From: Longimicrobium sp.
GTDB taxonomy: Bacteria; Gemmatimonadota; Gemmatimonadetes; Longimicrobiales; Longimicrobiaceae
Assembly (NCBI GenBank): GCA_035689035.1
Contig: DASSME010000407.1
Coordinates: 28,054 to 92,053 of the forward strand
DNA length: 64,000 bases
Direction: 5' to 3'
Part shown: one piece after another, positions 28,024 to 49,822 of the stretch
Numbering within the stretch: the stretch's first letter is position 1
Layout of the letters: every line of letters starts with the position of its first letter
Made by a program: the position numbers and the translations under genes
The notes under the pieces: generated by a model
The model's database searches: none
What the model saw: only the letters and a program-made list of their open reading frames with translations
What the model was told of the DNA's origin: nothing

Positions 28024-29112
28024 CTACGAAGACATTCGCGCGAGCGCATGCTTTGCCGCACGAATACGCGCGGTTTCGGCGCTCGCGAGAGCTTCTGTCA
28101 TCCTTGTACCGTTGTGTTCAACATATTCAAACCGTCGGACGACTTCGACAAGACGGTCCTCCTTATAGAGATACGCCGCGAGTCCAGCGGCGATATCCGC
28201 CGCGCGTACAGGTTCTGAAAGGACTGAGTCGAGTTCGATCAGGCAGCTAGGCTGCTCGGACTGGGTCAGCGCGAACGGATCATAATCCATCAAATCGCTG
28301 AACTCCCGGCGCAAACTCTCGAGTATACCAAGAACTTTTGTATTCCCACGGTCGAAGGCATGCTTTTTTCGAAGTTCGGCTCCAATTCGCTGCTTTTCGA
28401 GGTTGCTGTATGCCTGAAGACTCCATCCGTCATGTGGGCTTGCGACTTCTTCCAACGCGTTCGCGAAAACGGATGCAGATCTCGCAGCAAACAGCAATGT
28501 GTGGTTTAGCTTGTTGTCAAGCTGGTATCGAAGTTTGTGATGCATCTCGCTCAACTGTTCTGCCCCGATTACATCGACCCATCCGTTCATCAGCACGACA
28601 TCGATATATCGCGCAAGTTGCTCGGCGCGAGAATTCCACAATACGTCTGCAGCTACGAACTCCGCTTCCAGTTCGCGCAACTTCTGACCTGCAGGCGTCG
28701 GTTCGTTTAGACTTCGTAACATCCAATCGTCACCGGAATCAAGTAGCTCGTGCCTTAACCCCATAACGTACGGACGTGGGTCTACTATATGGATCCGCGC
28801 TAGGCGCGCACCATTCCATACTGACTCTCGAAGGTCGTAGGAGAGATCGGGTAGTCGTTCTAAAACAGTTTGTGACTTCAGTTCGCCGTCAACGGAAATT
28901 TGCTTAACAAGGTCATAATACCAGTCAAGCGGATGGTGTGGAAACCATTGTGCTGCGACAATGACTCTGCCGAATCCCGAAGCGTGATCGCGCGGGGTCG
29001 TTTCATCCGTAAATGAAACAACCCCGTCGCCTTCCGGTGTAAGCTCCACCGCGTTTTGAAAAGCGGACACAGGCAGATCTCCACTGCTGTGGCTCTCGCC
29101 GGTAACCGGCAT
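28024..29112 (-). CDS. Lower-GC hypothetical protein, DUF3800-like (RNase H-fold) putative nuclease
   Basis: N-terminal 'SFTDET' and C-terminal 'DS...PVRAADIAAG' resemble the DUF3800 DE...S..QxAD pattern; starts 17 bp after rtcB; atypical codon usage. Confidence 0.5.
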   Translation of the reverse strand: MPVTGESHSSGDLPVSAFQNAVELTPEGDGVVSFTDETTPRDHASGFGRVIVAAQWFPHHPLDWYYDLVKQISVDGELKSQTVLERLPDLSYDLRESVWNGARLARIHIVDPRPYVMGLRHELLDSGDDWMLRSLNEPTPAGQKLRELEAEFVAADVLWNSRAEQLARYIDVVLMNGWVDVIGAEQLSEMHHKLRYQLDNKLNHTLLFAARSASVFANALEEVASPHDGWSLQAYSNLEKQRIGAELRKKHAFDRGNTKVLGILESLRREFSDLMDYDPFALTQSEQPSCLIELDSVLSEPVRAADIAAGLAAYLYKEDRLVEVVRRFEYVEHNGTRMTEALASAETARIRAAKHALARMSS

Positions 29113-29129
29113 CTGAATCTGACGCGCGA

Positions 29130-30404
29130 TCAATCCTTGTACGGATCGATCTCGCCGGCGCCGGCCATGACGACGACCAGCGGATGCAGGACGTGCTGCA
29201 CCTCGATGGTGGGGCCCTGCGCCTCGAGCACCTTCGGGAGGCGGCGGTAGACCTGCGGCGCCTCGTCCAGGCCGCCGCCGCGAAGGACAACGCCACGCTT
29301 CGCCAGCCAGTCTTCCACCATCGTCGGCTGGATCTTGCCGTGGCTCTTCACCATCCCCTTGCGGGTGCGCTTGCCGGCGGCCTCGGTGCGGCTCATCACG
29401 CGGCCGGCGCCGTGCACGGTGCTGAACAGCGCGTCGCGCTGCACGGCCGCGATCTCGCTGTCCTCCGGCGCCACCGCGCCGGCCACGATCACCGCGTCGT
29501 CGCCCATTGATCCGCCGATGAAGCCGCGCTGGCCGGGGAACGCCGGCGTGGCGCCCTTGCGGACCACGATGTACTCCACCGGCTCTCCCTCGGGCGAAAG
29601 ATGGGTCTCGCGCCAGGCGAAGTTGTGGTGGTTGTGCACCATCTCCAGCTCGGTGCCGCCCAGCAGCTCCACCACCTTGCGCGCCACCCACTCGCGCCCG
29701 GCGTAGGCGTAGCGGCCAGCCAGCTCCATCAGGTGCCAGTAGTCGTGCCCCACGGGCTGGGTCACGTCCAGCAGCACCTCCTTCTCCCGCGCGCGCTGCC
29801 CCCAGTCGCCGCCCTGGGACAGCGACAGGAAGTCCGACGCGACGGTGTGCCCGAAGCCGCGGCTGCCGAAGTGCACGCCCACCCACACCGTGCCCGCGTC
29901 GTCGGCGAACACGTCCACGTAGTGGTTGCCCGAGCCGACGGTGCCCAGCTGGCGCCGCGCCTTCTCGCGAAGCGTATCGCGGTAGCCGCCCGTGTTGGGG
30001 ATGGCGTACCACGCCGGGTCGTTGAAGAGCGGGTCGTCCACCGGCGCGTCGTCGGCCTCGTTCTTCCGCCCGATCCCGAACGACACCGTCCCCGCGATCT
30101 CGTCCGCCGCACGGTTGACGCGCCGGTCCGTCGCCAGCCGGTGCGGGTTCCGCCGCACCTCGTCGATGGTGAGCCCCTTGGTGATGTCTCCGATCGTGAG
30201 GTCGGTTCGGATCGCGCAGTTCCCGCACGCGATGTCGAAACCCACGCCAACTACCGAAATCTTATCACGATACGCCGCCACGCCACCGATGGGCATCACG
30301 TAGCCGACGTGCCCGTCCGCCATGATGGCGGCCCGTTCAGCGCGGCTCGCGACGTCACGCAGCTGCAGGATCGTCTTCTCGTCGTGCTGCCCGAAGATCT
30401 TCAT
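29130..30404 (-). CDS. rtcB: RNA 2',3'-cyclic phosphate/5'-OH ligase RtcB
   Basis: 'DGHVGYVMPIG', 'VGFDIACG', 'GTVGSGNHY', 'HFGSRG', 'HNHHN', 'RKGATP', 'HGAGR', 'DEAP..Y'. Confidence 0.95.
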   Translation of the reverse strand: MKIFGQHDEKTILQLRDVASRAERAAIMADGHVGYVMPIGGVAAYRDKISVVGVGFDIACGNCAIRTDLTIGDITKGLTIDEVRRNPHRLATDRRVNRAADEIAGTVSFGIGRKNEADDAPVDDPLFNDPAWYAIPNTGGYRDTLREKARRQLGTVGSGNHYVDVFADDAGTVWVGVHFGSRGFGHTVASDFLSLSQGGDWGQRAREKEVLLDVTQPVGHDYWHLMELAGRYAYAGREWVARKVVELLGGTELEMVHNHHNFAWRETHLSPEGEPVEYIVVRKGATPAFPGQRGFIGGSMGDDAVIVAGAVAPEDSEIAAVQRDALFSTVHGAGRVMSRTEAAGKRTRKGMVKSHGKIQPTMVEDWLAKRGVVLRGGGLDEAPQVYRRLPKVLEAQGPTIEVQHVLHPLVVVMAGAGEIDPYKD

Positions 30405-30522
30405 CGTCTCTCTTTATCCCCGCACCTGAAGCAGGTGCGCCAGTTCGTCCGTGCGGTCCCATGTTCGCCAGGCAGCGAGATGCAAACGCACTTCCGCACT
30501 CGCGCACTCACGCACCTGTTGA

Positions 30523-30843
30523 TTAGTCCTCGTCGTCCCAGCGCTTGTCGGAGCGCTCTTCCTTGCGCTGAAGGTACTGGAACTCGCGGTCGCGCGCCCG
30601 CTGGCGCTCGGTGGATTCGCGGATGCCCTCGATCACGCTGGTGCGCAGCCACACCCGCGCGCCGTTGATGTCCACGAACTTGATCCACCGCGGCAGCCAG
30701 CGCCGCTCCAGCGCACGCGACAGCCGCGCCGCCGTGGCCACGTCCACGTAGTACCACTCGCGGCGGGTGTCCACCACGAAGTAGTCGCCCGCGTTCGGCT
30801 GCTCGCGCCCGGCCTGCTCCTGCTTCTGCCTGGTCGTGGTCAT
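30523..30843 (-). CDS. Small hypothetical protein between rsr and rtcB
   Basis: 106-aa ORF with coding-like codon bias; beta-rich core and charged tail. Confidence 0.7.
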   Translation of the reverse strand: MTTTRQKQEQAGREQPNAGDYFVVDTRREWYYVDVATAARLSRALERRWLPRWIKFVDINGARVWLRTSVIEGIRESTERQRARDREFQYLQRKEERSDKRWDDED

Positions 30844-30982
30844 GCTCGGTTCAGGGTTCTGCCGCCCGAAGCGCGGGTCCACCCAAGACCCGCGTCCGCG
30901 CGACATCAGTCGTATGATCTCCGGCCATCCGTCTCCCCGCGGGCGGGGCACGGGCCGGAGCCCGGGCCCCGGACCGCGCCGC

Positions 30983-32626
30983 CTACCGCGCGAAGTCGGT
31001 GATCAGCGCCGGCGTGGCGGCGTCGAAGCCCACCACGTCCAGCATCCCCGCGTCGTCCGGATCGGCGATGGTGAACCCGTTCGACGCCATCGCGACGACC
31101 ACCAGCTTCGCCGCGATCCCCGTGGCCTCGCGGTACTGCCGCAGGGCCTGGGTGGGGTGGATGGTGCCGGCCCACGTCTCGCTGTCGGTGTAGACCACGA
31201 AGACGTCGACCGCCCACCCGTGCTTGCGCGCCTCCACCATCGGCAGCGCGCAGTCGGTGCCGCCGAAGGGGAGCGCGCCCGTCTTCGCCACCACGTCATC
31301 CAGCCGCTGCCGCGGCGAGATGTCCAGCGTCGACAGCCCGCTGGGAAAGCCCGCGTGCATGCTGGGGTAAGTCCCCTGCGTGAACGCGGTGAAGAAGTGC
31401 CGCGGCTCGACCGCCGCCGTCACCAGCGCCATGGCGGCGCTCGCCTCGCGGCAGCTGACGCCCGTCAGGCCGTGCACGGGGGTGCACATGCTCCCCGACA
31501 CGTCCAGCGCCAGCATCACCCGGCGGCCGCTGGGCTCCACCGCCCCGAAGGCCAGGTAGAACGCCGCGTCCAGCGCGTCGCTCACCCGCGCCACCGGTTC
31601 CCACCGGCCCGTCCCGCGCACCCCGCGCCCGCTGGCGTAGGTGCGCAGCGCCGACAGGATCTGCACCGGGTGCACCCGCGCCCGGCGCAGCGCGGCCTGG
31701 TCCGTGATCCGCGCCGCCACCGTCTCCACGGCGGCGTTGCCGGGCGCCAGCACGCCCACCCGGGTGAGCGTGGCCAGGTTGCGGACCAGCGCGGTGAGCG
31801 GCATCGCCTCGAGCAGCGCCTCCCAGACCACGGGGTGGGCCAGCAGCGGCGTGGGCACCATCTCGCGGGTGAGCCGGTGCTCGCGCACCCACTCGGCCGC
31901 CCGCCGCGGCTCCATCCCGCCGTCCGCGTGCAGCTCGGCCACGGCACGCACCAGCCGCACCGCCTCCGTCTCGGGGGCGTCGGCGGGGAGCGCGCCGGTG
32001 ACGGCGCGGGCCAGCAGCGCCTGCTGCTCGCCGTCCGCCGGCCGGGGGTGCGCCAGCCGCAGCGCGTCGCGGTGGCTCCAGCCGTCGCGCTGCGGGTACT
32101 TCAGGAGCTGGTAGGCCAGCTCGCGCGCGGGCCGGGCCGTGTACCAGCGCGCCACCGCCCGCCGCACCCCGCGGCCCCAGCCGCGGAACGCCCGCACGTA
32201 CTGCAGCCAGTGCAGCAGGTGGGTGCCCGTGCGCGCCACCCGCGGCAGCGCGTCGAGCGCCGCGGCCCGCGTGGCCTCGTCGCCCAGCCCCGCCGCCATG
32301 GCCAGGGCGAAGAGCGCGGGGTCGTTGCGGGGCGCGCGGCCCGCCTCGCTGATCTCCACGATCCGGCGCACCACGCGGGCGCCGTCCTGCGCGATGCACT
32401 CGGCCACGGCGGTGGCGCTCTCCACCGTCAGCTGGCGCTCGGCCACGTAGTAGGTGCCGCCCTCGGTGCCCAGGACCAGGAAGCGGTCCAGCCGCGCCCA
32501 GCGGTCCACCGCCCACGCGAACCCGCCGCCGCTGTTGGGCACCTGCGCGGTGCCGGGGATCGGCGCGCTCTGCGGCGTGGCCAGCGTCCGCAGGCGAGTG
32601 GCGAAGTGCTTCGTGAAATCCATCAT
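30983..32626 (-). CDS. rsr: Ro60-related TROVE/vWA RNA-binding protein
   Basis: 'NSGGGF', 'RLDRFLVLGTEGGTYY', 'KYPQRDGWSHRDALRLAHP', 'ALVRNLATLT', vWA 'LDVSGSM', 'GGTDC', 'TDSET', 'MLDVVGFD'. Confidence 0.96.
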   Translation of the reverse strand: MMDFTKHFATRLRTLATPQSAPIPGTAQVPNSGGGFAWAVDRWARLDRFLVLGTEGGTYYVAERQLTVESATAVAECIAQDGARVVRRIVEISEAGRAPRNDPALFALAMAAGLGDEATRAAALDALPRVARTGTHLLHWLQYVRAFRGWGRGVRRAVARWYTARPARELAYQLLKYPQRDGWSHRDALRLAHPRPADGEQQALLARAVTGALPADAPETEAVRLVRAVAELHADGGMEPRRAAEWVREHRLTREMVPTPLLAHPVVWEALLEAMPLTALVRNLATLTRVGVLAPGNAAVETVAARITDQAALRRARVHPVQILSALRTYASGRGVRGTGRWEPVARVSDALDAAFYLAFGAVEPSGRRVMLALDVSGSMCTPVHGLTGVSCREASAAMALVTAAVEPRHFFTAFTQGTYPSMHAGFPSGLSTLDISPRQRLDDVVAKTGALPFGGTDCALPMVEARKHGWAVDVFVVYTDSETWAGTIHPTQALRQYREATGIAAKLVVVAMASNGFTIADPDDAGMLDVVGFDAATPALITDFAR

Positions 32627-32672
32627 CTCTCTTTCACTCGCCTCCTTCCGGGCTGAGCGTGGGGGGTGGAAA

Positions 32673-32763
32673 GGCGCCGCGCGCGGACGAGGGAGCCCGG
32701 GTGGAGATGCCGGTGCAACACCGGTTTGCGATCACCCGCCTGGTACGGCCCGCGCGCGGCGCC
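32673..32763 (-). ncRNA. Y RNA-like element Y1
   Basis: 14-bp terminal stem ggcgccgcgcgcgg/ccgcgcgcggcgcc; bulged-C helix GGGCCG / CUCGUCC; GGGUGAUCG box; next to rsr. Confidence 0.75.
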
Positions 32764-32772
32764 GGAGTGGAG

Positions 32773-32877
32773 AGGGCGGCGGATGAGGTGGCGCCGCTCG
32801 GCGCACGGCCTCCAGTTGCCCGGAGAACCATCCGTTAAAGGGATGCGATAACCGAATCGGCTACGACCCACCGCCCT
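32773..32877 (-). ncRNA. Y RNA-like element Y2
   Basis: Terminal stem agggcggtGGGUCG / CUCAUCCgccgccct; CGGUUAUCG box. Confidence 0.7.
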
Positions 32878-32914
32878 TCCTGTCTGTCCCGCGGTACTGC
32901 CTGGCTTCGAACGC

Positions 32915-33036
32915 GGAACGAGGGCCGGGGGGAGGTCAGGATTCGAACCTGAATTGACCACGGTAATCCTCATCCAACGGCCCGCCTTGCGGCGGACGAG
33001 GAGCGGCGAGGAACCCTCCACCGCCGGCCCCGCTCC
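32915..33036 (-). ncRNA. Permuted Y/tRNA-like element with T-arm
   Basis: Outer stem ggagcggggccgg/ccggccctcgttcc; inner CUCGUCCgcc-GCAA-ggcGGGCCG hairpin; GGAUUACCG box; T-arm UCAGG-UUCGAAU-CCUGA. Confidence 0.65.
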
Positions 33037-33050
33037 CTGCGCGTTCTTCA

Positions 33051-33164
33051 GCCGCACCGCCGCGCGCGGACGATCAGGTCCGCGGGCGGCACCCGGTCGC
33101 ATGGACCGGGTTCGAACTGGGCGCGATAACCGCTCGCGAGCGGCCCACGCGCGAACGGTGCGGC
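33051..33164 (-). ncRNA. Y RNA-like element Y3
   Basis: Terminal stem gccgcaccg..cgcgcgtGGGCCG / AUCGUCCgcgcgcg..cggtgcggc; CGGUUAUCG box; internal GUUCGAA. Confidence 0.7.
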
Positions 33165-33183
33165 GTCTGTCTTCCAGCTCCAG

Positions 33184-33314
33184 TGGAACCGGCGGGATTC
33201 GAACCCGCGACCTCTCGATCCCAAGTCGGTAACCCTCGGCCTTCGGCCCGGCGCGAGCACCGGGCAAGGGGGTGGCAGAAGGCGTAGCGCTCTACCGGGC
33301 TGAGCTACGGTCCC
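33184..33314 (-). ncRNA. tRNA(Pro-UGG)-like gene with a 57-nt Y-RNA hairpin inserted in the anticodon stem
   Basis: Acceptor GGGACCG/CGGUUCC+A, D-arm GCUC-AGCCCGGUA-GAGC, T-arm GCGGG-UUCGAAU-CCCGC. Removing 33229-33285 gives CUCGA-CUUGGGA-UCGAG and a 74-nt cloverleaf. Confidence 0.75.
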
Positions 33315-33343
33315 ACGGTGCTGCGTTGGCGCGATGCGAAGCG

Positions 33344-33478
33344 GGAGGCCCGGCGGGAATCGAACCCGCGACATCCGGAGTCACGATGATCCTCCGCCTT
33401 CGGCCCGCGGCGGGCAGCCACGGGCAAGGGGCCGGGGAGGATACCTCCGGTGCTCTACCGCTGAGCTACGGGCGCTCC
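33344..33478 (-). ncRNA. tRNA(His-GUG)-like gene with a 59-nt Y-RNA hairpin inserted in the anticodon arm
   Basis: D-arm GCUC-AGCGGUA-GAGC, stem CCGGA/UCCGG, T-arm GCGGG-UUCGAUU-CCCGC; insert 33387-33445 carries CCCCUUGCCC...GGGCCGAAGG. Confidence 0.75.
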
Positions 33479-33497
33479 ACGTTCCGCGTCAGGCAGG

Positions 33498-33570
33498 GGC
33501 GGCTGGTGGGGCTCGAACCCACTCCCCCGGATCCACGGCCCAGTGCTCTTCCCGTTGAGCTACGGCCGCC
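33498..33570 (-). tRNA. tRNA-His(GUG)-like gene, atypical
   Basis: G-1:C73 pair, acceptor GCGGCCG/CAGCCGC (1 mismatch), D-arm GCUC/GAGC, loop CCGUGGA (C33 instead of U33), T-arm GUGGG-UUCGAGC-CCCAC; no encoded CCA. Confidence 0.65.
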
Positions 33571-33600
33571 ACACGCCTGTGTCTTTCGTACGATCTTCGC

Positions 33601-33692
33601 GGCCGGCGGACCGGCGGAGCGTGTCCGCCTTCGGCCCTGGGAGTCGCGTTCGCCGGTGCCTGGGGCGTTCCCGCCCGCCGGCGCCGCCGGCC
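33601..33692 (-). ncRNA. Degenerate permuted Y-like hairpin
   Basis: Outer stem ggccggcgg..ccggcgg/ccgccgg.ccgccggcc containing GGGCCGAAGGCGG; second box absent. Confidence 0.35.
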
Positions 33693-33746
33693 GTCGTCTG
33701 GTCTGACCACCTCCGGGTGATCGGGTTCGTCACCGGGCGGAAACGA

Positions 33747-33787
33747 ACATCGCCCCGCCCGCGGCTTCTGCGCGGGCGGGGCGATGT
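33747..33787 (-). terminator. Long perfect hairpin (terminator or processing signal)
   Basis: acatcgccccgcccgcg / cgcgggcggggcgatgt, followed on the minus strand by tcgtttcc. Confidence 0.5.
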
Positions 33788-34216
33788 GGTCGCCTCCGAC
33801 GGACGTGGGTGCCTGGCGGAACGTTATGCCGCCAACCCGGTCCTCCCGCGCTGTTCCTTCTCGATCCCGTCATGCGGACCGCCCGCTTTGGCGCCGCGCT
33901 CGCCCACCGGGTTCATCAGCCCGAAGGGGGAGTACGGACGCACTTCGCCCAGCGGGGTGGCCGCGCACCTCTCCACCGCGGCGCCGGGCAACACGCCGGC
34001 GCCGGTGGATCTGTGCTGGAGTTGGGCGAAGCTGGGTCGCTGCATCTCGCTATACCGTCTTGCCGGCATCCCCGGCGGTGGTGGTCTGGACTCCCTGAAA
34101 CGCAAAATCGCGCCGCCGACGTCTCGCCGTGGTGCTCACGGCGCGGCATCCAATCCCCATGCAGGCGGGGTGTGGAAGACCGAACGACATCGGGACGCGA
34201 CTCCCAAGAGGCGACG

Positions 34217-34246
34217 AGTCTACAAGCGCTCCCCGCGGTCTGTCAA
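34217..34246 (-). promoter_or_regulatory. Sigma70-like promoter for the RNA array / rsr-rtcB locus
   Basis: Minus strand TTGACA-N18-TAGACT. Confidence 0.6.
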
Positions 34247-38022: not shown

Positions 38023-39885
38023 ATGGCTGACTACCGCAACGACGACGACCGGACGCTTCCCGGGGTGGGGATGAACCGCACCCCCGAAACCGATCCGGAG
38101 CACCTGCTCCCCGACCACACCAGCGCCGGCGCGGTGGGCTCCATCCCCGCCGCCGCGCTGAGCGGCGACCCCGACGCGGTGCGCGACGAGATCGAGCGCA
38201 CGCGTGCCCGGATGAGCCGCACCATCGACCAGCTGGACCGCGCCCTGGTGCGCAAGAAGACTGAGGTGCAGGAAAAGCTCGACGTGGCCGCGCCGATCCG
38301 GCAGCGCCCCTGGGTCTACGCCGGCGGCGTGTTCGCGGCCGGCCTGGCGCTGGGGCTGATCACCGGCGGCGGCAAGCGCGACGACGACGAGGACGACGAC
38401 CACGTGAAGATCCCCAAGGCCCTGCTGGCGGGGATCGGGCTGCAGCAGGCGAGGGGCGGCCGCGGGTCCGGCGACGACGTGGAGGTGGAGTACACCGGCG
38501 AGGGCTCGGACGACTGGGAGACGCGCGCCCGCGAGCTGATGTCGGTGGTGGCCCGGCAGGAGGAGGAGATCCGCTCGCTGCGCGGCGGCGGGCCGGACGA
38601 GACCTGGTACGACGACCCGGACTACCTGTCGCCCACCGACGCCCGCCTGCTCGACGACGTGGAGGCGCTCTCGGAGCACGACGTGCAGGACGAGTGGGAC
38701 GAGGACTGGAACTTCGTGGAGGGCGGGTACAACGACGAGCTCGGCGACACCTACACCGGCCAGCTCGACGGCGACCTGTACATGGGCTCGGAGTACGACG
38801 CGGCCGACTACGAGGTGGAGCTGGACCAGTACGCGCGGAGCGGGATCGACTTCAAGAAGCCGCTGGCCATGCTCCTGGCCGCCGGCGTGGCGGGCGCGCT
38901 GGGCACGCTCGGCAAGCGCGTCCTGGGCGGCCGCGACGACGAGGAGCTGGACGTGGAGGTGGAGCTGGAGCCCCGCGGCGGGCTGGCCGAGGACGTGTAC
39001 GTGGACGAGGCCGGCCGTAGCGCCCGCCGCGCCGCCCGCCACCAGGCGGGGCCCGCGCCGCGCGCCCGCGAGTACGGCCCGGAGTACGGAGCGGCCGGCG
39101 GCGAGCGCTACGCGGCCGCCCCGGCGCCGCGCCGCGCGGGCGCCTACGAGACGCGTGGCGCGTACGACGCCGGGTACGGGTACACCGGTGAGCACGGCGG
39201 CGAGATGGAGGTGGAGGTCGACCTGGAGCAGCCGGTCCGCCGCACCGGGTACACGGGTGAGATGGAGGTGGAGGTCGAGCTGGAGCGCCCGGTGCGCCGG
39301 TCGCTTCCGCCGCGGCGCCGCCGCCCGCGGGTGAGCCCGCTGGCCGGCGCGGTGGCGGCGGGCGCGGCGGCCGCGGTGAGCGGACTGGTGGCCAAGCTGA
39401 TCCATAGCCGCGCCGAGCGTGCCTCCGAGATGGAGGTGGAGGTGGAGCTGGAGCAGCCGCGGCGCCAGCCGGCACCGGTGCGCCGCTCGCCGGCCCCGCA
39501 GCGCCCGGCCGCGGCCTACACGCCGCAGCCGGCGGCCCGTCCGCAGGCGTCCGCGGGCGGTGAGCTGGAGGTGGAGGTAGAGCTCGAGACGCCGCGCGCC
39601 ACGCCCGCCACCGGCAGCTGGACGCCGTCCGCGCACCCGGAGCAGGCGATCAGCGGCTCCGCGTTCGGCTCCACGGCCTCGGCCGGGGCGTCGGACCGTC
39701 CCACCGACGTGGAGGTGGACGCCGAGACTCGCGGCGCCACCCGGGCGGCCGGGGGCACGGTGGGCTACGGCACCGGCGGACAGCCGAACCACACCGGCAC
39801 CCCCGGGAGCGCCTCCGGCAGCGGGAACGCCGGCGGCGGCACCGGCACCGGCGGCAGCACCCCGTCCAACCCGCCGCTGATGTAA
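38023..39885 (+). CDS. DUF3618-like protein with acidic low-complexity repeats
   Basis: 'DAVRDEIERTRARMSRTIDQL'; repeated E(M/L)EVEVELE motif; AGGAGG RBS. Confidence 0.75.
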   Translation: MADYRNDDDRTLPGVGMNRTPETDPEHLLPDHTSAGAVGSIPAAALSGDPDAVRDEIERTRARMSRTIDQLDRALVRKKTEVQEKLDVAAPIRQRPWVYAGGVFAAGLALGLITGGGKRDDDEDDDHVKIPKALLAGIGLQQARGGRGSGDDVEVEYTGEGSDDWETRARELMSVVARQEEEIRSLRGGGPDETWYDDPDYLSPTDARLLDDVEALSEHDVQDEWDEDWNFVEGGYNDELGDTYTGQLDGDLYMGSEYDAADYEVELDQYARSGIDFKKPLAMLLAAGVAGALGTLGKRVLGGRDDEELDVEVELEPRGGLAEDVYVDEAGRSARRAARHQAGPAPRAREYGPEYGAAGGERYAAAPAPRRAGAYETRGAYDAGYGYTGEHGGEMEVEVDLEQPVRRTGYTGEMEVEVELERPVRRSLPPRRRRPRVSPLAGAVAAGAAAAVSGLVAKLIHSRAERASEMEVEVELEQPRRQPAPVRRSPAPQRPAAAYTPQPAARPQASAGGELEVEVELETPRATPATGSWTPSAHPEQAISGSAFGSTASAGASDRPTDVEVDAETRGATRAAGGTVGYGTGGQPNHTGTPGSASGSGNAGGGTGTGGSTPSNPPLM

Positions 39886-49248: not shown

Positions 49249-49499
49249 GGGGTGGATGGTTCGCGGTGCGGGCGCCGGAGGGCGCGGCGGAGCGGGGCGC
49301 GTGGAGGAGAAACCGTATGCGAGCATCGGCGGGGCGGCTCGGGTTTCCGGTGGGCAGCGCGGGTGGGCGCGCCAGTGACAGGCGATCATGGAAACGCATC
49401 AACCACGAATCTTGTGACAGTTCGTGAGCAGGGCGCGACAAAGCGTCGTGTGGCGGGGTTGTCCGCGGCGCGCGGCGGCCGTAGCTTTGCTCGCTGACA

Positions 49500-49685
49500 A
49501 CATCGAAGCGAGGGGGCCTTTCGGAAGCCGGTGCAACTCCGGCGCGGCCCCGCCACTGTAAGAGGCCCGGCGCGCGTGCGCTGCCGGTCCGGCCCGCTCC
49601 GCGGGGGTTCAGCCCCCGCACAGCCACTGGGCAGCACGCCCGGGAAGGTGGAGCGCCAGCCGCCTCGAGCCAGGAGACCGGCCCC
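49500..49685 (+). promoter_or_regulatory. Cobalamin riboswitch
   Basis: ggaagccggtgcaactccggc...gccactgtaa, gccactggg...gggaagg and B12 box agccaggagaccggcc, upstream of btu genes. Confidence 0.93.
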
Positions 49686-49822
49686 CGCGCTCCCGCATGA
49701 ACGCCCCTCGCGGGAGGGGTGCGGGGTCCGACCATCGGCCGAGCTCGCTCCGGGCCCCTCGCGGGCCGCCTCGCCGACCGTCGCACCCGTTCTCTCCCCG
49801 GCAGTGGGAAGGAACGGGTTCT

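Follow-up and report, generated by a model that had tools for sequence, protein, structure and literature searches.

What is encoded in the long structured stretch that precedes the Ro60 gene of a soil Longimicrobium? Bacterial Y RNAs are usually known as one or two per locus. The stretch in question is located in contig DASSME010000407.1 of Longimicrobium sp. (Gemmatimonadota), a soil metagenome-assembled genome (587 contigs, 83% complete), within a region of 64,000 nucleotides (nt) that was analyzed as a whole, is called here the window, and provides the coordinates used below. Its minus strand includes, in this order, one sigma-70-type promoter, approximately 1.6 kb with ten structured units (U1, U2/T2, Y0, tRNA-His, tY-A, tY-C, X1, D', E, and F), the Ro60 ortholog rsr (30983..32626), a 106-amino acid open reading frame (ORF), and rtcB (29130..30404), which codes for an RNA 3'-phosphate ligase. 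A first-pass annotation of this DNA had listed the promoter, the structured stretch, rsr, a small ORF, rtcB, and a DUF3800-like ORF, all of which are present, and had counted about eight RNA modules, six of them with a Ro motif; the array was recovered and the counts were corrected to ten units, seven of them with the motif. The interpretation it offered is, as a whole, partly supported. The reading that we favor, with a probability of about 0.7, is that of an RtcR-independent Ro60/Y RNA/RtcB locus whose RNA part would have grown into a co-oriented multi-gene array, with seven Y-type modules that share a predicted Rsr-docking core and with tRNA bodies as punctuation.

A common core on three scaffolds

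All modules share the strand of rsr and precede it by 47-1070 nt, and the gaps between array units are 10-46 nt long. The core shared by the seven Y-type modules, which is predicted to be the site of Rsr docking, consists of a lower helix in which GGGC-C-GA faces UYGYCC and a C is bulged, an upper stem, and then UUAUCG. The sequence GGUUAUCG directly 3' of the upper stem is common to all Y-type classes and nearly invariant in the F-type and X1-type RNAs. The two opposite topologies proposed in the first-pass annotation were found again: the helix is capped by a loop in four units (Y0, tY-A, tY-C, and D') and has the classic topology in three (X1, E, and F). In the capped arm the order is UYGYCC, a short loop, and GGGC-C-GA, i.e., a Ro60-binding helix with its bulged C and with a loop at the place where classic Y RNAs have their ends. 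Judged by sequence and predicted folding, the core is carried by three scaffolds, which are the classic Y RNA (X1, E, and F), a bare hairpin (Y0), and tRNA bodies (tY-A, tY-C, and D', the last one without a D arm). The Ro motif of the YrlA type, GNCGAAN0-1G, is represented by GGGCCGAAGG in tY-A, tY-C, and Y0 and by GCCGUUGG in D'; the second A of GGGCCGAAGG varies in orthologs.

Repeated short sequences also mark the array. There are exactly three copies of the 11-mer GGGCCGAAGGC in the window, all within the array stretch and on the minus strand, and the T-loop motif GGTTCGANNCC is found four times in the array stretch and six times in the window, where 0.74 copies are expected. Folding z-scores were −3.70 for U1, −4.21 for Y0, −5.55 for X1, −3.04 for D', −3.27 for E, and −3.77 for F. 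Y0 (33599..33692, minus strand) is a stand-alone hairpin directly 5' of tRNA-His in which the motif GGGCCGAAGG is loop-capped. Its inner loop is of a conserved ACAAACGCGAC type, reads GAACGCGAC in the window, and is related to the inner loop of X1; the same architecture 5' of tRNA-His was present in 21 of the 23 loci that were folded.

tRNA-shaped Y RNAs with native ends

Evidence for the tRNA-shaped modules (tY) comes from covariance models, including one built from a single module class and named R1, and from a comparison of 30 related rsr loci. The module tY-A (33345..33475, minus strand) belongs to class A/B and has the order acceptor, D arm, anticodon stem, T arm, and acceptor, the anticodon stem enclosing a long Ro-binding arm instead of a loop. 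The Rfam tRNA model recognized it with 40.6 bits, a 66-nt insert, and no anticodon loop, the R1 model scored 74.4 bits, and its minimum free energy (MFE) fold is a cloverleaf plus the arm. In a plain MAFFT alignment of class A/B, 92% of the cells were paired vs 37-48% when the partners were slid; 16 pairs and 109 cells showed double changes and all five anticodon-stem pairs covaried.

The module tY-C (33184..33314, minus strand) represents class C, a complete tRNA shape with the Ro-binding arm between the D arm and the anticodon arm. It has an acceptor with G3-U70 and A73, D and T arms, and a real anticodon arm with a 7-nt loop; the R1 model scored 118.7 bits and the Rfam tRNA model 24.7 bits for the 3' part only, and the loop triplet is not conserved. 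Class C covariation was measured on a covariance-model realignment that, being fitted to the model, leans towards structure: 96% of the cells were paired vs 32-53% when slid, 11 pairs had double changes, and none of 500 shuffles reached the observed score. A MAFFT alignment of this class was dropped as the basal stem of the Ro arm was mis-registered. The third tRNA-like Y RNA, D' (32922..33031, minus strand), has an acceptor-like stem, a capped Ro arm with the divergent motif GGGCCGUUGG, and a T arm, and scored 36.6 bits with R1; 22 orthologs have the Ro hairpin, GGGUUAYC, and the T arm in common. D and T stems are invariant in the 26 class C sequences and nearly so in the 38 class A/B sequences. 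The earlier proposal of Y/tRNA chimeras interleaved with tRNA bodies at a Ro60-RtcB locus is supported, and the modules do show the covariation in homologous loci whose absence would have spoken against it.

Among the known RNAs closest to this form is YrlA (RF02553), in which the T arm is located 5' of the D arm, the acceptor stem is closed by a loop, and the ends are in the Ro stem (PMC4201824; 10.1101/312249). The modules described here are like YrlA in their location on the rsr strand within 4 kb, their conserved D and T arms, and their CGAA-type Ro motif, but they have native tRNA ends, a Ro helix closed by a loop, and the order acceptor-D-Ro arm-T-acceptor, and class C also retains an anticodon arm. 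With a full tRNA cloverleaf and native ends, tY-A and tY-C are circular permutations of YrlA. The literature searched describes the tRNA-like domain of bacterial Y RNAs only in the permuted, end-closed YrlA form, and the end-open tRNA-shaped form was not found in that literature or in Rfam.

The first-pass annotation had considered that all modules might match YrlA in standard topology. In a relaxed Rfam search, which also detected two tRNA-like bodies with large inserts besides the tRNA-His, the best YrlA scores in the window were 35.1 and 23.9 bits, while the gathering score is 69 bits, and no match at the gathering score was found in 20 related loci, taken from the 62 loci outside the genus that are described below. 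The alignment with 35.1 bits lies over the junction of tY-A and tY-C, as would be expected if YrlA-type RNAs folded across modules, with the T arm of one unit, an acceptor helix closed with the following unit, and the D arm of the latter. Acceptor pairing across neighbors is also not negligible, with 5.83 of 7 pairs, but within a module it reaches 6.81 of 7, the pairing is perfect in 82% of cases within vs 34% across, and it is within modules that the acceptor stems covary. Furthermore, each Ro helix is closed locally by a loop of about 5-15 nt, and the junction score is half of the gathering score. Since acceptor pairing is better within the module, we take the native tRNA order as the functional one, and consider folding across the junctions very improbable.

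Could the long modules be working tRNAs that decode, with an intron or an extra arm and only an incidental likeness to a Ro site? The Rfam tRNA model does exceed its cut-off for them (40.6 bits here and up to 54 bits in relatives), and ARAGORN likewise reports tRNAs within some class C modules. Nevertheless, classes A and B have the insert at the place of the anticodon, orthologs of a single genus differ in their class C triplet, and the insert has the bulged-C helix and the UUAUCG that form the core of the classic Y RNAs of the same array. In addition, the modules occur only beside rsr, and this is true of the long modules in the genome of the window. A decoding role is therefore hard to credit.

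The loop of class C deserves separate consideration. It retains a length of 7 nt and the form CU-NNN-purine, with U33 kept, and at least 12 triplets are found among the 26 orthologs, a variation that fits either relaxed constraint or a decoy role. In the latter case the tRNA-shaped modules would mainly serve as targets that spare real tRNAs from anticodon nucleases or ribotoxins, or as substrates for resealing by RtcB, with Rsr as chaperone. The co-location of rtcB throughout the genus, the loop that tY-C keeps while its triplet differs, and the spare tRNA-His (or, in Myxococcota, whole tRNA arrays) that accompanies rsr are in agreement with such a role. Relaxed constraint, however, would give loop variation equally well, invariance is seen in the Ro core and in the D and T stems rather than in the loop, an anticodon loop is missing altogether from tY-A, the related B class, and D', and no nuclease gene is conserved in the locus. 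These points make decoys or repair substrates an unlikely main function, if the least unlikely of the alternatives weighed here.

There is also little to recommend a fourth idea, in which the Ro arm of tY-C would be a removable cassette, cut at its base (tRNA positions 26/27) and followed by RtcB ligation to yield tRNAs of ordinary length while Rsr holds the precursor. The anticodon of the resulting tRNAs would differ between species, with an acceptor that often has the alanine identity pair G3-U70 together with A73; if it were true, bacteria would have a tRNA 'splicing' or tRNA-supply system that is gated by stress and depends on RtcB.

Classic-topology Y RNAs

The remaining three Y-type modules, X1 (33051..33164), E (32774..32876), and F (32673..32763), are on the minus strand as well, F being located directly 5' of the rsr ribosome-binding site. 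They have GGG(C/U)CG on the 5' strand of the terminal stem and C(U/A)UCC or CGUCC on its 3' strand, which places the docking helix at the RNA ends. X1 includes the lower Ro stem at its termini, an upper stem, UUAUCG, and an inner hairpin with a CA(A/U)GCGAC-type loop, and among 23 X1-type sequences compensatory changes were detected in 12 of 22 pairs, in both the lower (9 of 12) and the upper stem. In the Y-like RNA E, the 5' GGGUCG is predicted to pair with a 3' CAUCCGCC and UUAUCG is followed by a hairpin that resembles an anticodon loop. Among 20 F-type orthologs, 11 of 15 pairs of the terminal stem show compensatory changes and GGGUUAUCG is nearly invariant. The lower stem of classic Y RNAs, GGNC-C-GA with UUGNCC and a bulged C, is found in the F-type and X1-type RNAs when their ends are placed as predicted, and so is an upper stem followed by UUAUC; the X1-type upper stem covaries. 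The hairpin of E (32835-32849, minus strand) has 4 bp and the 7-nt loop CUUUAAC (triplet UUA) right 3' of UUAUCG; it is kept in close relatives with a changed loop sequence.

UUAUC is known to be conserved in Y RNAs and sbRNAs (PMC4726728). X1, E, and F resemble metazoan Y RNAs, nematode sbRNAs, and Deinococcus radiodurans Yrn1 in the lower stem, the bulged C on both strands, the upper stem, and UUAUC, but they are bacterial, are located in an operon-like array beside rsr, and have extra conserved inner hairpins with CAAGCGAC-type loops. The Rfam Y_RNA and sbRNA models matched nothing in the window even at E ≤ 10. Related bacterial copies do match the nematode sbRNA model RF01656, which has the consensus GGUCCGG...UGGGUUAUC: the three classic Y copies of an Armatimonadales rsr locus (L095:1166-1700) obtained 40.4, 34.2, and 27.1 bits, of which the best is over the gathering score of 38. 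The modules of this locus alternate as Y, tY, Y, tY, Y.

Distribution of the array

The layout of the array recurs in about 29 Longimicrobium genomes, a genus with at least one complete single-contig genome. The R1 model yielded 109 matches in 29 Longimicrobium loci, all of them on the rsr strand; of these, 61 are full tRNA-shaped modules, 25 lack the D arm, and 23 are ordinary tRNAs. The 26 loci with any full tY module have one to three each. A search of 151 Gemmatimonadota genomes with R1, in which only 23 candidates per genome were scored, produced matches in two Longimicrobium genomes. Beyond the genus, 62 loci of Gemmatimonadales, Myxococcota, Armatimonadota, and Chloroflexota were compared, and 47 of them have tRNA-ordered modules of approximately 105-135 nt (E < 1e-9) on the same strand as rsr. 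In four rsr loci of Myxococcota (L063, L065, L079, and L088) arrays of 10-20 ordinary tRNA genes are found on both sides of rsr, and tRNA-shaped Y modules are located among the tRNA genes downstream of rsr.

The tRNA-His of the array and tRNA-type processing

The one ordinary tRNA of the array, tRNA-His(GUG) (33498..33570, minus strand), was identified by ARAGORN and by the Rfam tRNA model RF00005 (50.3 bits), and has an encoded G-1 and the discriminator C73. It is a diverged second copy, the housekeeping tRNA-His being encoded on another contig. A tRNA-His with anticodon GUG (ARAGORN) leads the array in 22 Longimicrobium loci, with G-1 encoded in all of them. The tRNA genes of the genome lack an encoded CCA and their trailers resemble those found 3' of the tY modules, which fits a processing by RNase Z and the CCA-adding enzyme that tY modules and tRNAs would share. 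The same genome has, outside the window, about 20 tRNA genes of varied specificity within 2 kb on one strand (contig C529:3630-5531); this contig is short and the assembly does not link it to rsr.

A precedent for the action of tRNA enzymes on Y RNAs is YrlA of Mycobacterium smegmatis, which is cut by RNase P and then receives CCA (PMC4201824). The processed RNA has tRNA-type acceptor ends and stays bound to Rsr, as would be the case for the tY modules; it consists, however, of two halves derived from a permuted precursor, whereas here one continuous chain is encoded in tRNA order.

Promoter and leader

The promoter-like sequence P1 (TTGACA-18-TAGACT, 34217..34246, minus strand) was the only sigma-70-like site that a consensus scan detected upstream of rsr, and close relatives retain both hexamers; a terminator for the preceding gene is located at 34384-34347. 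The first-pass annotation had regarded all of the 1.6 kb as non-coding and structured. The structure is there, but about 220 nt may be coding and the first approximately 480 nt are a leader with two terminator-like hairpins, U1 and T2, and not Y modules. U1 (34097..34212, minus strand) is a leader RNA in which a long stem surrounds two variable hairpins and a U tract follows, similar to a terminator or an attenuator, and the same fold was obtained from all 21 sequences. The 5' strand of its stem is the 18-mer GGGAGTCGCGTCCCGATG (34188-34205, minus strand). The 18-mer shows no change across 21 loci with Ro60 proteins that diverge by as much as 29%, and its pairing partner shifts register between subgroups. 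This suggests an extra constraint on the 18-mer, which might be, for example, an operator or a protein- or RNA-binding site.

The second leader segment, U2 (33739..34096, minus strand), has conserved motifs and ends in T2 (33788-33739, minus strand), a strong hairpin with a U-rich tail that is kept in about 22 loci. U2 includes a possible leader ORF of 73 amino acids (34045-33824, minus strand) with a conserved C...GEVRPY..FGL motif, the C-terminus ...EQRGRTGLAA, and a stop 38 nt before T2. Indels in multiples of three hinted at coding. However, one conserved nucleotide motif of the leader is read in two different frames among loci, and the ORF is missing from about half of the loci, with only two subgroups of the genus retaining it. 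It had no match in Pfam or NCBIfam. The consensus scan detected no second promoter between T2 and Y0. As no other promoter is evident and the unit gaps measure only 10-46 nt, the array would most simply be fed by regulated read-through of the leader hairpins.

Proteins encoded at the locus

The product of rsr (547 amino acids) has the TROVE ring and the vWA domain of Ro60 proteins (Pfam TROVE, 3e-42, and vWA_Ro60, 4.5e-61; NCBIfam Rsr, 5.6e-165). The gene was found in 35 of 36 Longimicrobium genomes, with identities of 71-88%, and no copy was detected in 24 genomes of two sister families. The ligase gene rtcB (424 amino acids; Pfam RtcB, 3.9e-59) is the sole RtcB match of the genome and is kept downstream of rsr in 27 loci. 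In about ten relatives (L010, L014, L015, L017, L018, L020-L023, and L027) the segments that code for RtcB residues ~1-60 and ~60-424 are split by approximately 1.3-1.5 kb, which fits an intein or a similar insertion; NCBIfam includes 'intein-containing RtcB' models, and the rtcB of the window is uninterrupted. Between rsr and rtcB, orf106 (30523..30843, minus strand) codes for a conserved protein with tblastn matches in 26 related loci (42-67% identity); it matched no Pfam or NCBIfam family, and the nearest Atlas clusters are unnamed and mostly from Gemmatimonadota. A 734-amino acid ORF at 28024-30228 was rejected, because up to residue ~370 it is rtcB read in the wrong frame.

Ro60, Y RNAs, and RtcB are also encoded together in the Salmonella rsr-yrlBA-rtcBA operon, which is under the control of RtcR (PMC7790460). 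In Longimicrobium, by contrast, the promoter is of the sigma-70 type, two terminator-like hairpins are found in the leader that follows it, the RNAs are located upstream of rsr, and seven Y-type RNAs and a tRNA are found instead of two RNAs. The first-pass annotation had noted that rtcA and rtcR were missing; the families PF06956 (RtcR) and PF01137 (RtcA) matched none of 37 genomes of the genus, 17 of them of high quality.

A model for the array

Y0 through F are probably transcribed as one precursor together with rsr, because promoters would not fit into gaps of 10-46 nt. The leader hairpins U1 and T2 would gate access to the array. RNase P and RNase Z would cut the precursor at tRNA-His and at the tY bodies ('tRNA punctuation'), which would also free the neighboring classic Y RNAs, and CCA would be added to the tY ends as it is to the tRNAs of the cell. 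Rsr would bind each Y-type RNA through the shared core, and the tRNA bodies or the conserved loops may tether it to partners that recognize tRNA, such as RtcB and exonucleases, or compete with tRNAs for them. To our knowledge, no binding partner of the tRNA-like domain of YrlA is known. The best reading that we can infer for the tRNA bodies is that they serve as processing punctuation and as handles linking Rsr to partners such as RtcB.

Several observations weigh against the locus being a tRNA-punctuated array of Y-type RNAs. The folding z-scores of tY-C (−1.0) and tRNA-His (−0.45) are unremarkable, the D and T stems never vary and as a result provide no evidence of covariation, and the MFE of the X1 copy in the window prefers local hairpins over the classic fold. 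Moreover, two terminator-like hairpins stand between the sole recognizable promoter and the array, and part of the leader may code for protein.

If the array is correctly interpreted, a complete, end-open tRNA can carry the Ro-docking core in three insertion geometries, and such RNAs are arrayed with a real tRNA and with classic Y RNAs whose lower stem, upper stem, and UUAUC are the signature of animal Y RNAs and sbRNAs. This would make the homology of bacterial and animal Y RNAs testable, as well as the participation of RNase P, RNase Z, the CCA-adding enzyme, and perhaps alanyl-tRNA synthetase in maturing or partnering Ro ribonucleoproteins, and the switching on of an RtcB/Ro system that has no RtcR. 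The origin of YrlA could also be addressed. As cited in 10.1101/312249, the model of Sim and Wolin (2018) derives YrlA from dimeric tRNA transcripts; at least in that account, it requires intermediates of the kind seen here as tandem tRNA-like units beside rsr, and the YrlA model does align across a unit junction. The dimers supposed there are plain tRNAs, whereas each unit here already has a Ro arm of its own, so YrlA could arise by a simple shift of ends, and its descent from tandem tRNA units becomes testable.

Accessory ORF and other features of the window

A DUF3800-like ORF (28024..29082, minus strand) follows rtcB and had been taken as part of the unit in the first-pass annotation, an assignment that has to be withdrawn. 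Its GC content is 52%, compared to ~70% nearby, and it is absent from the loci of relatives; on these grounds it is an add-on outside the conserved system. The relation to DUF3800 itself is a lead only, from an Atlas feature score of 0.93 to DUF3800 clusters, as the ORF had no Pfam match at E ≤ 1, which includes PF12686, and none in NCBIfam. A promoter-like sequence, TTTCCA-18-TATTAT with an extended TG (28915-28944, minus strand), is located inside this low-GC region, so the insert may be expressed independently.

The genes that flank the locus, one of the erythromycin-esterase family and one LEA_2 gene, are unrelated to it. Elsewhere in the window, ARAGORN called a 94-nt tRNA-Gly(CCC) (39768-39861, minus strand) that Rfam did not report; similar calls of 85-97 nt are found in other parts of this high-GC genome and may be false positives or interrupted tRNAs. 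A cobalamin riboswitch was identified at 49497-49700 on the plus strand with 43.8 bits, over its gathering score.

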